From positions 1-7,884 of the forward strand of contig JAQUVR010000027.1 in assembly GCA_028693335.1 (NCBI GenBank): a stretch of DNA of 7,884 nucleotides. The letters run 5' to 3'. The DNA comes from Candidatus Iainarchaeum sp. Its GTDB lineage: Archaea > Iainarchaeota > Iainarchaeia > Iainarchaeales > CSSED10-239. Below the pieces are notes generated by a model, which saw nothing but the letters and a program-made list of their open reading frames with translations, did not search any database and was not told the origin of the DNA. Position numbers and translations under genes: made by a program. Below are positions 2 to 7,884 of this stretch, in pieces (the stretch's first letter is position 1; every line of letters starts with the position of its first letter).

Positions 2-430
2 TTAGTTGTTGTTTCTGTGATAATTATTTTAATAATTTTAAATATAAATAAAAAGCTTGCAAATGAAAAATTATCACAAGCAGTTGGAATTGTAGATGTT
101 ACAAAAAATATATCAAGAGAAAGTCATAACTTTGTAGTAACAAATTTAACTGGTAAAAAGGTAATTATAAAAAACATGAGTTCTAGTTATAGTCCAACAA
201 TAACCGGTTATATAATAAGTAGTACAAAAGATCAATTTCCTTATAATTGTATAATAACATTAGAAGAAAGCTTAACAATTCCGTCTAGTAGTATAATGCC
301 ACTAGAAATAGAATGTGTTCCTAAGCCAGAAGGAACTAGAAATTTTAAATTAAGCTTAATTACAGAAGAAAGCACCTTTATAAATCTCTTTGTTCCAGCA
401 AATCCAAGTGCAGAAAATTGTGATGAATAG
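2..430 (+). CDS. Archaeal pilin-like (class III signal peptide type) surface protein, 5'-partial; true start lies upstream of the window
   Basis: The frame is open from the first bases of the window (codons from nt 2 read LVVVSVIIILIIL...). The GTG at 17 used by the ORF track therefore sits inside a hydrophobic helix and is unlikely to be the start. The helix resembles LIVVSVIIIVVVL of the gene at 6464. The following Asn/Ser/Thr-rich segment (NFVVTNLTGKKVII ... ITLEESLTIPSSS) parallels 6611-6895 (KLTFRNSSNQNIVVL ... LLEESILVNNGG). N-x-S/T sequons are present (NIS, NLT, NMS). TAG stop at 428-430. Confidence 0.6.
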   Translation, partial: LVVVSVIIILIILNINKKLANEKLSQAVGIVDVTKNISRESHNFVVTNLTGKKVIIKNMSSSYSPTITGYIISSTKDQFPYNCIITLEESLTIPSSSIMPLEIECVPKPEGTRNFKLSLITEESTFINLFVPANPSAENCDE

Positions 431-857: not shown

Positions 858-907
858 AAATAAATAAAAGTTATACCTTTTTATTTAGTTTGGAACATAT
901 AATATAT

Positions 908-1171
908 ATGATCAAATCAAAAAAGAGATCAAAATTAGAAAAAATATTATCAAAAGAATGGTATTTAGATCTTTTTTCTTGGAAATATATTAATGATCAT
1001 CTATTAAGTAGCACATTTATTTATGTGGTTTTAATAATTATTATCTATGCCCTAGTTATGGAAATAACTAAATTTAATAAAATAAATTTTTTAATATTTT
1101 TATTAAAGGCGATCTTTATGATATTAATTTTAATATATGTAAAACATTTTGGTGAAATTACAAAAAAATGA
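908..1171 (+). CDS. Small hypothetical membrane protein (2 predicted TM helices)
   Basis: The frame is open over 890-1171 (TTG start in the ORF track). The first ATG at 908 gives MIKSKKRSKLEK... (87 aa). A basic N-terminus is followed by two hydrophobic stretches (FIYVVLIIIIYALV and INFLIFLLKAIFMILILIYV). The TGA stop lies 6 nt before the gltX ATG. I recognise no family. Confidence 0.5.
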   Translation: MIKSKKRSKLEKILSKEWYLDLFSWKYINDHLLSSTFIYVVLIIIIYALVMEITKFNKINFLIFLLKAIFMILILIYVKHFGEITKK

Positions 1172-1177
1172 TATTTT

Positions 1178-2881
1178 ATGGATAATCAATTAGAATTAAA
1201 AAAAATAGTTTTAGAAAATGCAGTTAAGTATAATGGTAAAGCAGATCAAAAAAGTGTTTTTGCAGTAATTCTTGGACAGATTCCTGAATATCGAACAAAA
1301 ATTAAAGAACTTCAAGAAATCTTGCCAAAAATGATCTTAGAGATCAATAATTTAAATATTGATTTACAAAAAGAAGAATTGTTAAAATTAAATCCAGATT
1401 TTTTCAATAAAACTGAAGAAAAAAAAGAAAGAAATATTTTTAATTTTTTAAATATAAAAAAAGATCAAAAAATAATTAGTTGTTTTCCGCCAGGCCCAGA
1501 AAAATATTTTCATATTGGTCATTCAAAAGCAATTTTTTTAAATTATTTACTTGCAGAAGAATATGGTGGAGAATTTTATTTAAGATTTGAAGACACAAAC
1601 CCAAAATTAGTAAAACCAGAATTTTATGAAATAATGCAAGAAGATATTTCTTGGCTTGGAATTACTCCAAAAAAAGTTGTTTATGCTTCAGATTATATAG
1701 ATCTCTTAAAAGAAATGGCAATAAAGTTAATTAAAAAAGATAAAGCATATGTTTGTTTTTGTGATAGTGAAACAATTAGTAAAAACAGAGAAGAAAAGAT
1801 GTGCTGTTCTTGTAGAAATAATAACATAGAAGAAAATTTAAAAAATTTTGCTGATATGGAAAAATTTCCAGAAGGAAAAGCAACCTTAAGATTAAAAATA
1901 GACCTTTCTCATAAAAACACCAGAATGAGAGATCCATCCATTTTTAGAGTAATTGATACAGAGCACCCAAGAATTGGAAATAAACATAGAAATTATCCAA
2001 CATATGATTTTCAAAATGCAGTGTTAGATGGATATTTTAATACCACTCACAGATTTAGAACTGTAGAATTTGAAATGGCTAGTGAATTGCATCATTATAT
2101 TAGAAAAGAACTTGGTCTATTTGACACATATACCTATGAATTTGCAAGATTTAATTTAAAAGGAATGGAGTCCTCTGGAAGAGTGATAAGAGAAAAAGTA
2201 AACTCCGGAGAATTGATTGGATGGGATGATCCATCACTACCAACATTAAGAGCATTAAAGAGAAGAGGTTTTACCCCAGACGCCATAAAACAATTAGTAA
2301 TAGAATCAGGTATTACTAAAAATAGTGGAACAGAGATAACTTGGGACACATTAATTAAATATAATAAAAGAGTACTTAATGATAGTTCTAAAAGATACTT
2401 CTTTATAAAAGATCCAATAGAAATAGAAGTTATTAATGATCCAAAACAAAAATATTCTTTAAAAATACATCCAAATTTAGATCTTGGTATTAGAAATTTT
2501 ATTTCCAATGGCAGATATTATCTAGAAAAAGAAGATGTTGATCAATTTAAGGAAAATGACTTAATAAGATTAATGGATAATATTAATTTTAGATATTTAA
2601 AAAATAATTATGAATATGTAAGTACAGATTATCTTGATTTTAAAAAAGAAAATTCACAAAATAAAAAAATAATTCATTTTTTACCAGCAGATGATTCTCA
2701 ATTAATAACTGTAACAATATTTACCCCAGATCATAAATTAATCAAAGGAATTGCAGAAAAGAATATTGAAAATCTAATAATCGGAGATATTATTCAGTTT
2801 GAGAGATTTGGTTTTTGTAGATTAGATTCTATAACCGAAGAAAATAAAAATAAGGTTTATAATTTTTGGTTCACCCATTAA
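1178..2881 (+). CDS. gltX: Glutamyl-tRNA synthetase, archaeal type
   Basis: 567-aa ORF. Motifs seen: class I HIGH signature FHIGH (1508-1522); YLRFEDTNP; Cys knuckle CFC-x13-CCSC; GWDDPSLPTLRALKRRG; C-terminal QFERFGFCRLD. The ~100-aa N-terminal extension (LENAVKYNGKADQKSV...PEYR) and the overall colinearity match archaeal GluRS as I remember it (e.g. the Methanothermobacter enzyme). Confidence 0.95.
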   Translation: MDNQLELKKIVLENAVKYNGKADQKSVFAVILGQIPEYRTKIKELQEILPKMILEINNLNIDLQKEELLKLNPDFFNKTEEKKERNIFNFLNIKKDQKIISCFPPGPEKYFHIGHSKAIFLNYLLAEEYGGEFYLRFEDTNPKLVKPEFYEIMQEDISWLGITPKKVVYASDYIDLLKEMAIKLIKKDKAYVCFCDSETISKNREEKMCCSCRNNNIEENLKNFADMEKFPEGKATLRLKIDLSHKNTRMRDPSIFRVIDTEHPRIGNKHRNYPTYDFQNAVLDGYFNTTHRFRTVEFEMASELHHYIRKELGLFDTYTYEFARFNLKGMESSGRVIREKVNSGELIGWDDPSLPTLRALKRRGFTPDAIKQLVIESGITKNSGTEITWDTLIKYNKRVLNDSSKRYFFIKDPIEIEVINDPKQKYSLKIHPNLDLGIRNFISNGRYYLEKEDVDQFKENDLIRLMDNINFRYLKNNYEYVSTDYLDFKKENSQNKKIIHFLPADDSQLITVTIFTPDHKLIKGIAEKNIENLIIGDIIQFERFGFCRLDSITEENKNKVYNFWFTH

Positions 2882-5003: not shown

Positions 5004-6161
5004 ATGCCCACAAAAATAAGAAAAGAGATATTAGAAAGTACTTGGCAAGAAGATCTACTTAGATTAATATATAGTGGGCAAATAGAAAATATTACAGAAA
5101 TATTACCATTAATTACCCCTGGAGAGAATATAAGAGCAGCTCTTGACAATATTTTAGATGGACAAACTGGCGCTATTATTATTCTTGGGACTAATGAAAA
5201 GTTAGATGATATTGTTAAAGGAGGCATGAAACTAGATGTTCCATTTACTCCAAGTAGATTATTTGAATTATCTAAAATGGATGGTGCAATAATTCTTTCA
5301 AATGATCTAAAAACTATTCTACATGCTAATGCTCATTTGATGCCAGATAGAGACGTTTCTTCAAAGGAAACTGGTATAAGACATAGAAGTTCTGAACAAA
5401 CAGCAAAACAAACAGGCTTACCTGTTATTACAATATCAAAAAGAAGAAATATTATTTCATTATTTTTTAAAGATCAAAAATATGTTTTGCAAGATCTAAG
5501 TCTATTAATTGTAAAAGCAAATCACGGAATTAACACTCTTAGAAGATATAGGGAAAGAGTTGATCAGGCATTAGATCAATTAACATACAATGAATTAAAT
5601 AACCAGTCTTCTCTTTCAGAAGATGCTATATCAATTATTCAAAAAATATTATATTTTTATGTACATAGTTTTGAATTAGATAACTTGATTATAGAACTTG
5701 GAAATCAAGGAAGAGAAGTTGTTCAAAGCATGTATGAATATGCATTTGGTTTAGATGATGTTTTGTCTTTGATATTACAAGACTATTGTGAGCCAGAAAT
5801 AAATAAAGAAGAAGCAGATATTTTAGTTAAAAAAATAAAACTATTAGATCTTAGAAAAATAACAGATCCTAAAAAAATATCCGAAATTTGCTCTATTCCT
5901 TTAGATATAATAGATCATAATCTTAATAATGAAATAATCTATAAATATCCAAGAGGATATAGGATATTATCATTAATACCAAAAGTAAAAAAGAAAACTA
6001 TTGAAAAAATAATATATAATAAGAAAAATATCTATAATATTCTAAACACAACACCAGAAGAAATGTCAAAAATTACAGATCAAGATATAAATTTTTCAAA
6101 TTATTTAAAAAGAAAGCTTGACGAATTGGTTGAAAAATCAATAGATTTTGTTGGGTTATAA
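5004..6161 (+). CDS. disA: DisA-type diadenylate cyclase (c-di-AMP synthase; DAC domain + helical linker + C-terminal HhH-like region)
   Basis: 385-aa ORF. The catalytic DGA (5280-5288) and RHR (5379-5387) motifs occur in the contexts ELSKMDGAIILS, ETGIRHRSSEQTAKQTG and ISKRRNIISLF. A long helical linker (LIVKANHGINTLRRYRE...) and a C-terminal PRGYRILSLIP segment follow. This is colinear with bacterial DisA (Thermotoga/Bacillus) as I recall them. Confidence 0.9.
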   Translation: MPTKIRKEILESTWQEDLLRLIYSGQIENITEILPLITPGENIRAALDNILDGQTGAIIILGTNEKLDDIVKGGMKLDVPFTPSRLFELSKMDGAIILSNDLKTILHANAHLMPDRDVSSKETGIRHRSSEQTAKQTGLPVITISKRRNIISLFFKDQKYVLQDLSLLIVKANHGINTLRRYRERVDQALDQLTYNELNNQSSLSEDAISIIQKILYFYVHSFELDNLIIELGNQGREVVQSMYEYAFGLDDVLSLILQDYCEPEINKEEADILVKKIKLLDLRKITDPKKISEICSIPLDIIDHNLNNEIIYKYPRGYRILSLIPKVKKKTIEKIIYNKKNIYNILNTTPEEMSKITDQDINFSNYLKRKLDELVEKSIDFVGL

Positions 6162-6220: not shown

Positions 6221-6442
6221 ATGAAAAAAACAACTTTTCTGTTAATAATTGTTTTAATAATTATAATAATATTTTTTATTTTTGCAAACTACAAAACAAT
6301 TAAACAATCAGAAACAGAAATCTCTAAAGATATTTTAGAATATCAGAATGGGTTGATTAAAGCAAGTAATTTATCAACAGTAATTATTCTAGGAATCATT
6401 GTTGTTATATTTTTTATATTTTGGAAATTGTTTTTCAGATAG
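6221..6442 (+). CDS. Small hypothetical membrane protein (2 predicted TM helices)
   Basis: 73-aa ORF. MKKTT is followed by the hydrophobic FLLIIVLIIIIIFFIFA, a ~35-aa polar loop, then the hydrophobic VIILGIIVVIFFIFW. It lies 59 nt after disA and 21 nt before the pilin-like ATG at 6464. I recognise no family. Confidence 0.5.
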   Translation: MKKTTFLLIIVLIIIIIFFIFANYKTIKQSETEISKDILEYQNGLIKASNLSTVIILGIIVVIFFIFWKLFFR

Positions 6443-6463: not shown

Positions 6464-6610
6464 ATGTTAAATAAAAAAGCAATAAGCCCAATTATTGCAT
6501 CAACTTTGTTAATCGTAGTTTCAGTAATTATTATTGTTGTTGTTTTAACTTTTGGAACAGATTTTACAAAAAAAGGAACAATACAAGTAGATAATGTCTT
6601 TGGAAATTAG
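6464..6610 (+). CDS. Archaeal class III (prepilin-type) signal peptide segment, 48 codons ending at an in-frame TAG; probably the 5' part of one gene with 6611-7884
   Basis: Hand codon walk: ATG at 6464, TAG at 6608-6610. MLNKKAISPIIASTLLIVVSVIIIVVVLTFG has a short basic n-region, an A-ISP motif and a ~20-residue hydrophobic helix. This is typical of archaeal prepilin/preflagellin-type N-termini. It is apparently too short to appear in the ORF track. Confidence 0.6.
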   Translation: MLNKKAISPIIASTLLIVVSVIIIVVVLTFGTDFTKKGTIQVDNVFGN

Positions 6611-7884
6611 AAAGAAACTGTTGATATATCTTTATTTCCAAGAAACTATGCTAATGGCAAATTAACTTTTAGAAATTCAAGTAATCAAAATATAGTTGTC
6701 TTAGGATATAAGATATTTGATGAAAACACAAGTGCTGGAGCACAAGATCTAATATTGTTAGAAGAATCTATTTTGGTAAATAATGGTGGACAATCAACCA
6801 TTGAATTTAGTAGGTTGCCTGTTGGATCTAAATTTTCTGTTCAATTATATTTAGAAAATGAAGTTTATGTAACATTAAAAAATATTTCAATTTTTCCACC
6901 AAATAATCCAGAAGAAACAGATCCACCAATAGATCCACCAGAAGAAACCTGTTTATTTGATAATTTTGATCCACAGTTATTTTTAACAAATTGGGATTTT
7001 TCTAAACTTGATAAAGGTGTGGTTGGTAATAGTTATAACTCAACAACAGATTGTCAATTAATTGCTGGAGAAGAAGGCACATATCTTGCTGTTGTAGATT
7101 ATGGTCATTTTTCTGGAAATGAAATATTAAATTGTAGTAATGATTCAACATTAAATATTGATGATAGTTTTAGTATTGAAATGATTTTAAATACTAATTA
7201 TGAAGTGCCCAATATTATAAAAATGGCAATAGGAAAAGAACACAGTTGTTTTTTATTAAATTCTAAATCTGTTGAATGTTTTGGAAATAATGCGTATGGT
7301 CAATTGGGAGATGGCAAGGAAGCATCTAGACTACACCCAAGGCCAATTGAAACAAAAGTTCCAGAACTAGAAAACATTATAGATATTGGTGCTGGAGATA
7401 ATTTTTCTTGTGCACTTACTGGAGATGGAAATATCTATTGTTGGGGTATTGGAGAAAGTGGGAGATTAGGTATTGGTTCTGAAGAGACGGCGCTATCACC
7501 TAAAAAAATAATAGAAGGAGATAAAGATATAAACTTTGTAAAATTAAGTGTTGGTGGAAGACATGCCTGTGCTGTTAGTGATGAAAAAGGAATAAAAAGT
7601 CTATATTGTTGGGGAGCTAATGATTTTGGTCAATTAGGTGTTGGATCAGAGGACCCATTCATATCAAAAATTATTCTAGTTGATCTTAAAGGAATTGTGG
7701 CAACAGATCTTAATGTGGTTAGTGGATATGCTCATACTTGTTTAAATACAATTAATGATAAAAAAGAACAAGAGTTTTTTTGTTGGGGTGATAACAGTAG
7801 GGGACAAGTTGGTATTAATTCTTTAGAACCTAAATTTAATGGACTTCAGTCACATAATAACAATAAAGTTGTAGATGTGTTTTC
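6611..7884 (+). CDS. RCC1-repeat beta-propeller surface protein body, 3'-partial, with no start codon of its own near its 5' end (continuation of 6464-6610 across the TAG; possibly a pseudogene)
   Basis: The same frame as 6464 stays open for 424 codons to the window end. Base composition predicts roughly one stop per 12 codons by chance. Modules: an Asn/Ser/Thr-rich beta-type segment (6611-6895), a PEETDPPIDPPEET hinge (6896-6949), a module with 3 Cys (6950-7210), then RCC1-like blades. The first in-frame start candidates are only TTG 6755, GTG 7019 and ATG 7181. Confidence 0.85.
7211..7884 (+). repeat. Tandem RCC1-like blade repeats (protein level, 54-58 codons each; at least 4, continuing beyond the window)
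   Basis: The signature recurs as ECFGNNAYGQLG (7274-7309), YCWGIGESGRLG (7436-7471), YCWGANDFGQLG (7604-7639) and FCWGDNSRGQVG (7778-7813). Each is preceded by a (G)xxH/FSCAL-type strand (KEHSCFL, DNFSCAL, GRHACAV, YAHTCLN). Confidence 0.75.

Follow-up and report, generated by a model that had tools for sequence, protein, structure and literature searches.

The locus and its interrupted reading frame

The window (the whole stretch of DNA analyzed, 7,884 nucleotides) has a GC content of ∼25% (base composition: A, 0.41; T, 0.34; G, 0.14; C, 0.11). It carries genes for a thioredoxin, an archaeal-type glutamyl-tRNA synthetase (GluRS; TIGR00463, 474 bits, above the cut-off), a metallo-β-lactamase-fold protein, a HAD hydrolase, a GNAT acetyltransferase, a DisA-type diadenylate cyclase, and a 73-amino-acid (aa) membrane protein. 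The closest GluRS sequences among the GTDB species representatives shared 47 to 51% identity with that of the window and were from MAGs labeled Candidatus Woesearchaeota or "uncultured Methanosarcinales." These matches tentatively place the organism as an uncultured archaeon, probably of a DPANN/Woesearchaeota type, that lacks a close relative among the representative genomes. At the right end of the window lies the 5′ part of a further gene, predicted to encode a pilin-like surface protein with an RCC1 propeller, in which the reading frame is interrupted by a TAG. The features of this gene and of two related or adjoining genes are as follows.

2 to 430, + strand: 3′ part of the gene for a small (165-aa) pilin-like protein, possibly a distant paralog of the N-terminal module of the interrupted gene; the full protein is found in contig L017 at 9429 to 9926.
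6221 to 6442, + strand: conserved upstream gene for the 73-aa membrane protein, which has two helices; 21 nt separate its genuine TAG stop from the pilin-like gene, and 10 contigs encode an identical protein, each with the same TAG stop.
6464 to 6610, + strand: 48 codons and a TAG, which form the truncated 5′ part of the putative pilin-like/RCC1 surface-protein gene; the same 48-aa open reading frame (ORF) was called in contig L002.
6476 to 6589, + strand: likely archaeal type IV pilin-like N-terminus (class III signal), residues 5 to 42, KKA/ISPIIASTLLIVVSVIIIVVVL; based on PF07790, the UpsB model, and the motif read from the sequence.
6608 to 6610, + strand: derived nonsense codon TAG, with a C-to-G change at 6610 from the common and ancestral state TAC (Tyr49); TAC in 13 contigs, TAG in the window and L002 only. 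The codon falls within the short linker that follows the helix.
6611 to 6895, + strand: short linker, then a putative small β-rich domain (KLTFRNSS...VTLKNISIF), severed from the N-terminal helix by the TAG; based on the open frame and low-confidence AlphaFold2 strands, with boundaries that are likewise putative.
6896 to 6949, + strand: proline-rich linker PPNNPEETDPPIDPPEET, strain variable and with an in-frame indel; mismatches and the indel cluster at 6886 to 6979 in comparison with L005 and L017.
6950 to 7204, + strand: region leading from the linker to the propeller, possibly the N-terminal half of a LamG/concanavalin-like domain, the C-terminal half of which would lie beyond the window, after the propeller.
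7205 to 7884, + strand: RCC1-repeat β-propeller running past the window end (intact gene, 738 to 743 aa); based on PF00415, PF13540, and a PDB sequence search.

When codons are counted from the ATG at 6464, codon 49 is TAG (6608 to 6610), and a further 424 codons remain open in the same frame up to the window end. Both observations of the original prediction were reproduced from the window sequence, and the positions it gave for the earliest downstream in-frame TTG (6755), GTG (7019), and ATG (7181) were verified. At the base composition of the window, a random codon would be a stop with a probability of 0.097, and 424 open codons would occur by chance with a probability of ∼1.7e−19; the frame after the TAG is therefore certainly real coding sequence. 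The TAG is surrounded by nonrepetitive sequence, GGAAATTA[C/G]AAAGAA, and lies outside any homopolymer or repeat, a context in which the C-to-G substitution bears no mark of simple-sequence slippage.

The protein encoded at 2 to 430 had been put forward as a paralog of the interrupted one. The full 165-aa protein, taken from a sister contig, matches the target in architecture and has a comparable N-terminal helix (KKKSVSSIIIVTLLVVVSVIII versus KKAISPIIASTLLIVVSVIII), whereas a BLASTP comparison of the 2 to 430 protein with the target did not reach significance (E value, 7.2; 24% identity over 137 aa).

Architecture of the encoded protein

Class III signals have a basic N-terminus, then a small residue where cleavage is presumed to occur, and then a hydrophobic helix 20 or more residues long, and all three can be read in MLNKKA/ISPIIASTLLIVVSVIIIVVVLTF, the start of the interrupted gene product. 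The Pfam family PF07790 (Pilin_N) matched this region over profile positions 1 to 40 with an E value of 4.4e−4, and the score of 21.5 bits lies under the gathering score of 25.2. A weak match to the UpsB pilin model was also obtained (E value, 0.023). Membership in the archaeal type IV pilin-like class is thus likely, not proven, and the helix, described in the original prediction as a plain signal peptide, is better regarded as a putative archaeal pilin-type signal. In this class, the prepilin peptidase cuts N-terminal to the hydrophobic helix, which is kept on the mature protein (PMC6098224); the helix would therefore serve as an anchor or assembly element rather than as a disposable signal peptide. 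The short basic stretch, the KKA, the sequence ISPIIASTLL, and the ∼25 hydrophobic residues are shared with archaeal type IV pilins. The protein differs from them in the PF07790 score below threshold and in carrying, in place of a small pilin globular domain, an RCC1-propeller passenger of ∼700 aa. Processing and pilus assembly are putative for this protein; genes for PibD/EppA and PilB/PilC were absent from the ∼28 kb of genome examined.

The strands of the β-rich domain come from a single-sequence AlphaFold2 model and are of low confidence (pLDDT, 51 to 66). The model of the downstream body as a whole was poor (mean pLDDT, 44) and was used neither for a fold search nor for domain claims. The propeller is far better defined. 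PF00415 scored 117.4 bits (cut-off, 21.7) and PF13540 scored 100.1 bits (cut-off, 22), with multiple repeats detected, and a PDB sequence search matched the propellers of UVR8, HERC2, and RCC1 (E value, 1e−45), with the match to UVR8 at this E value spanning residues ∼250 to 640 of the intact allele. The C-terminal ∼100 residues of the intact allele gave a weak match to PF13385 (Laminin_G_3; E value, 0.018), which is below threshold, and the propeller may be inserted in a LamG-like domain. The likeness to the seven-bladed propellers of UVR8, the HERC2 RLD, and RCC1 thus consists of a strong sequence match and RCC1/RCC1_2 Pfam scores above threshold. In contrast to those proteins, the propeller here is predicted to be extracellular, carried on a pilin-like anchor and perhaps within a LamG-like domain, and there are no grounds to expect the GEF or photoreceptor function of RCC1 or UVR8. 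The protein as a whole is predicted to be located at the cell surface.

The N-terminal 250 residues of the intact allele appear to be essentially without detectable homologs outside the species. A search of a collection of 5.8 billion proteins with this query returned one fragmentary match (P0001; 84% identity over 35% of the query), and the same query found nothing in the GTDB representative genomes. A homolog of the target gene was likewise absent from the fetched flanks of the relatives whose GluRS shared 47 to 51% identity. With one fragmentary match only, there are therefore no orthologs beyond the species to compare at codon 49, and the comparison was made among strains.

Codon 49 among strains and the decoding of TAG

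Same-species contigs were found through exact protein identity of neighboring genes and one DNA pattern scan. They came from a municipal landfill leachate cistern (JGI 3300014203 and a Ga0172377 contig; PMC9723747), from a high-solids anaerobic digester (GenBank JASEYN; PMC10793357), and from several SRA runs assembled by Logan. Fourteen distinct contigs spanned codon 49 (15 with the window), sharing 96.6 to 99.9% DNA identity with the window. In 13 of them (L001, L003 to L010, L016, L017, L019, and L020) codon 49 is TAC (Tyr), and TAG was found in only two of the 15, the window and L002. The JGI metagenome pattern scan, in which any base was permitted at the third codon position, identified two contigs only, both with TAC, and searches with the 48-aa product and with DisA identified no TAG-carrying contig besides L002.

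Three of the TAC contigs carry the whole gene as one uninterrupted ORF, of 743 aa in L016, 738 aa in L017, and 739 aa in L019. L017 belongs to a 117-kb contig and shares 98.66% identity with the window across all 7,884 bases. Together with L005, it represents the closest TAC haplotypes; between 6397 and 6698, position 6610 is the sole difference of these two contigs from the window. TAC in 13 contigs and 6610 as the only difference on the closest haplotypes identify TAC as the ancestral codon and the TAG as a single-base change that arose in one strain lineage. TAC is otherwise rare in the genes of the window (6 TAC versus 86 TAT among Tyr codons). Allelic copies with a sense codon in one continuous ORF are what defines a nonsense allele, and they bear out the proposal that the stop falls inside a normally continuous protein; the check suggested with it, of a sense codon in relatives, returned Tyr.

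An assembly or sequencing artifact, or the consensus of a minority variant, is very unlikely to account for the TAG, which would mean that the organism carries TAC and an intact gene. The change is a single base, and all other strains have TAC, as an artifact would predict. The same TAG was recovered in two separately assembled contigs, the window and L002, which might share the same or sibling samples and hence a minority-allele consensus. However, L002 (the Logan assembly of SRR22315505) was assembled independently and, at 99.87% identity, differs from the window at five other positions, none of them 6610, which makes an assembly error unlikely, and the nonrepetitive site context also argues against one. 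Of the suggestion that the TAG was either an assembly or sequencing error or a population polymorphism, the second half holds.

The gene caller applied to L002 gave the 48-aa ORF and a separate 353-aa ORF from the TTG equivalent to 6755 of the window, as if the locus comprised two genuine genes, one for a 48-aa membrane peptide and one for an RCC1 protein with its own start. Such an arrangement is next to impossible, as every other strain has one continuous ORF, and the TTG, at codon 98, lies inside the putative β-rich domain and would yield a product without an export or anchor signal. The intact alleles refute it.

This organism reads TAG as a stop codon. Over 20 kb of L017, the stops of 19 genes were TAA (n = 12), TAG (n = 6; 32%), and TGA (n = 1), and none of the 19 genes contains an in-frame TAG. 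As noted in the original prediction, TAG is also the stop of the window ORFs that end at 430, 837, 4906, and 6442. In the GNAT gene and the 73-aa gene, the TAG stop is kept in every sister contig spanning it. Read-through of the GNAT-gene TAG would run 51 codons into the next gene, and that of the small pilin-like gene would likewise run 29 codons into the gene after it. The thioredoxin Pfam match stops six residues short of the TAG of that gene. On this stop-codon usage, a global reassignment of TAG is rejected; the original prediction had also considered it unlikely.

A more local form of decoding, by programmed read-through, a suppressor tRNA, or pyrrolysine, with the full-length protein made at a low or regulated level, is highly improbable. 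It would suit the perfectly intact downstream frame, but such a frame is also expected after a recent mutation. An A follows this TAG, versus T, G, or C after the genuine TAG stops, in a very small sample. Set against these points, the codon is TAC in 13 sister contigs, and its flanks are identical in the TAC and TAG alleles, so no dedicated recoding signal has evolved around it. The fold of 6599 to 6700 revealed no 3′ RNA structure at the TAG (z = 0.15; 114 of 200 shuffled sequences folded as well or better), an Rfam scan of the window matched no family, and neither a stimulatory structure nor a conserved 3′ context of the kind associated with read-through was found. A tRNA scan detected none in the window and only a tRNA-Asn in 20 kb of L017, with no tRNA-CUA across the 28 kb examined. 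A suppressor tRNA may be encoded elsewhere in the genome, of which ∼20 kb was sampled in L017. Low-level near-cognate read-through of the UAG, which would restore Tyr, may in principle occur. The only likeness to known UAG recoding, as in pyrrolysine or suppressor-tRNA codes, is an in-frame TAG ahead of a long open frame. Where recoding is marked by a conserved in-frame TAG and depletion of TAG as a terminator, this locus differs in having TAC in relatives, TAG as a frequent genuine stop, and no machinery seen in ∼28 kb. The earlier suggestion of read-through or suppression is therefore not supported by the identical flanks, the z score, or the ordinary use of TAG as a stop.

Probable consequences of the nonsense allele

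The most probable explanation by a wide measure is that the TAG is a recent, strain-level nonsense allele of an otherwise intact surface-protein gene. A C-to-G transversion at 6610 in one strain lineage would have converted the Tyr49 codon from TAC to TAG in a gene for a putative cell-surface protein of 738 to 743 aa, comprising a pilin-like helix, a small β-rich domain, a proline-rich linker, and an RCC1 β-propeller. Because the organism reads TAG as a stop, a product of 48 residues is expected, which would comprise the pilin-like helix and ∼17 further residues. The extracellular body would then be missing or, at best, translated from an internal start with no export or anchor signal, as with a restart at the TTG of 6755. 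This expected termination, together with a restart lacking an export signal, argues that the gene is most likely nonfunctional in the TAG lineage. It would then be a young pseudogene, with the loss-of-function allele segregating within the species.

No decay is visible after the TAG, which fits a recent lesion. The downstream frame is intact, and within the gene the window and L002 differ at only two sites (one synonymous, one nonsynonymous). The original prediction had listed a recent nonsense mutation, an error or polymorphism, and recoding without choosing among them. The first gains support from TAC in 13 contigs and the single C-to-G change at 6610, and it describes the TAG together with the polymorphism, while recoding is set aside.

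Across strains, dN/dS was 0.16 to 0.58 for the target gene, 0 to 0.02 for DisA, and 0.14 for the GNAT gene. The nonsynonymous rate of the target gene was 10 to 30 times that of DisA, with hypervariable patches and indels in the linker. The gene is fast evolving yet under purifying selection and, given these dN/dS values, is therefore functional in the species; the rate pattern is as expected of an exposed surface protein.

The nonsense allele could also be one case of a recurrent, selectively favored loss of pilin-like surface proteins, in the form of on/off variation for virus escape or host attachment, for example. The fast evolution of the gene and disruptions in two other contigs would be in keeping with this: in L003 the target gene is frameshifted near codon 390 by an A5-to-A4 change, and in L021 the small pilin-like neighbor gene is frameshifted by an A10-to-A9 change in a poly-A tract encoding its Lys-rich N-terminus. 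These two cases hint weakly at recurrent surface-protein loss, and the TAG lineage itself comprises two distinguishable genotypes. Selectively favored loss is nevertheless unlikely, because both frameshifts fall in homopolymers, which are prone to assembly errors. That the TAG is one of several independent knock-outs, with loss or switching recurrently selected under viral pressure or a change of host, for example, is likewise unlikely. The TAG is a plain point mutation and not a reversible repeat-tract switch, three events in ∼20 contigs are compatible with neutral turnover of dispensable genes, and dN/dS is below 1. Selection for loss would add to the nonsense allele as an explanation and does not exclude it.

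The nonsense allele shares with other cases of point-nonsense pseudogenization of surface-protein genes an early single-base stop in one lineage, with the downstream frame and the orthologs intact. Nothing is unusual in kind here, although the gene belongs to an uncharacterized family and its host, an archaeon not yet cultured, is probably DPANN-like; the TAG is a new instance of a well-known type of event and not a new mechanism. As it is not a case of recoding, this in-frame TAG should not be taken to indicate an alternative genetic code or pyrrolysine use in the lineage. Annotations should merge the 48-aa ORF with the downstream ORF and mark the two as a single disrupted gene. A fast-evolving, species-restricted protein with a putative pilin-type anchor and an RCC1 propeller, of which sister strains carry likely loss-of-function variants, is a candidate cell-surface interaction protein, and its gene is worth including in population-genomic studies of such archaea.

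Strain variation, a possible second lesion and a possible host domain in the pilin-like/RCC1 gene

Differences between strains in the pilin-like/RCC1 surface-protein gene fell mainly into two clusters, at window positions 6886-6979 and 7186-7218. The first is the proline-rich linker, which carries an in-frame indel in the same-species contigs L005 and L017, and a single 500-bp bin holds 33 of the 106 mismatches. The second is a short patch directly before the first RCC1 blade, where NTNYEVPNIIKM stands against NLNYTPTEITKM in L001 and L019, also from the same species. Both look like hypervariable or recombined segments.

A 1-base deletion in an A5 run disrupts the gene in L003, a contig of another strain (Logan SRR34069004), and the gene caller divided it there into two ORFs of 390 and 330 amino acids.

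Window 7594-7598 (L003 ~2270-2285): A5 tract of the pilin-like/RCC1 gene, in GGAATAAAAAGTC

This deletion either disrupts the gene a second time, independently of the TAG, or reflects an assembly error in the homopolymer. Across the window and L017, the base following TAG was T, G or C at genuine stops (10 of 10 cases) and A at the premature TAG, and TAC was rare among tyrosine codons (TAC versus TAT, 6 versus 86 in the window and 31 versus 238 in L017); in both comparisons the numbers are too low to support an interpretation.

On sequence similarity, a LamG/concanavalin-like domain may harbor the RCC1 propeller as an insertion. The stretch before the propeller is similar to the opening half of a domain of this kind, and the C-terminal ~100 residues of the intact allele gave a weak match to Laminin_G_3 (E = 0.018).

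Window 6950-7204: putative first half of the LamG/concanavalin-like domain
L016 (same-species contig) 1488-1800, minus strand: intact-allele C terminus, putative other half

Neighboring genes and relatives of the GluRS

Window 5004-6161: full-length DisA-type diadenylate cyclase (NF010009, 319 bits)
Window 890-1171: hydrophobic ORF of 93 amino acids, TTG start, between the thioredoxin and GluRS genes

The organism encoding this complete DisA is a DPANN-like archaeon. In the longer comparisons across strains, DisA showed 0 to 3 nonsynonymous versus 15 to 30 synonymous differences, and, judging by these sequences, purifying selection on it among strains is very strong. The status of the hydrophobic ORF as a gene is uncertain: a gene of 87 amino acids was called in the sister contig L021, with no call in L017, L018 or L019.

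The GluRS genes of the GTDB representatives CAYLII01 and CAZOPU01 shared 47 to 49% identity with that of the window, about as close as those of Woesearchaeota MAGs (48 to 51%). Both representatives are MAGs titled "uncultured Methanosarcinales archaeon," labels that may be unreliable.

Poly-A tracts in the small pilin-like gene

Window 2-430 (L017 9429-9926; L021 ~1186-1230): upstream gene for a small pilin-like protein of 165 amino acids

Poly-A tracts encode the Lys-rich N terminus of this protein, arranged as A10-T-A10 in L017 and as A7-T-A10 in L018 to L020, L022 and L024. The second tract of L021 is A9, which puts the gene out of frame. The poly-A tract at the 5′ end of this small surface-protein gene could be slippage prone.
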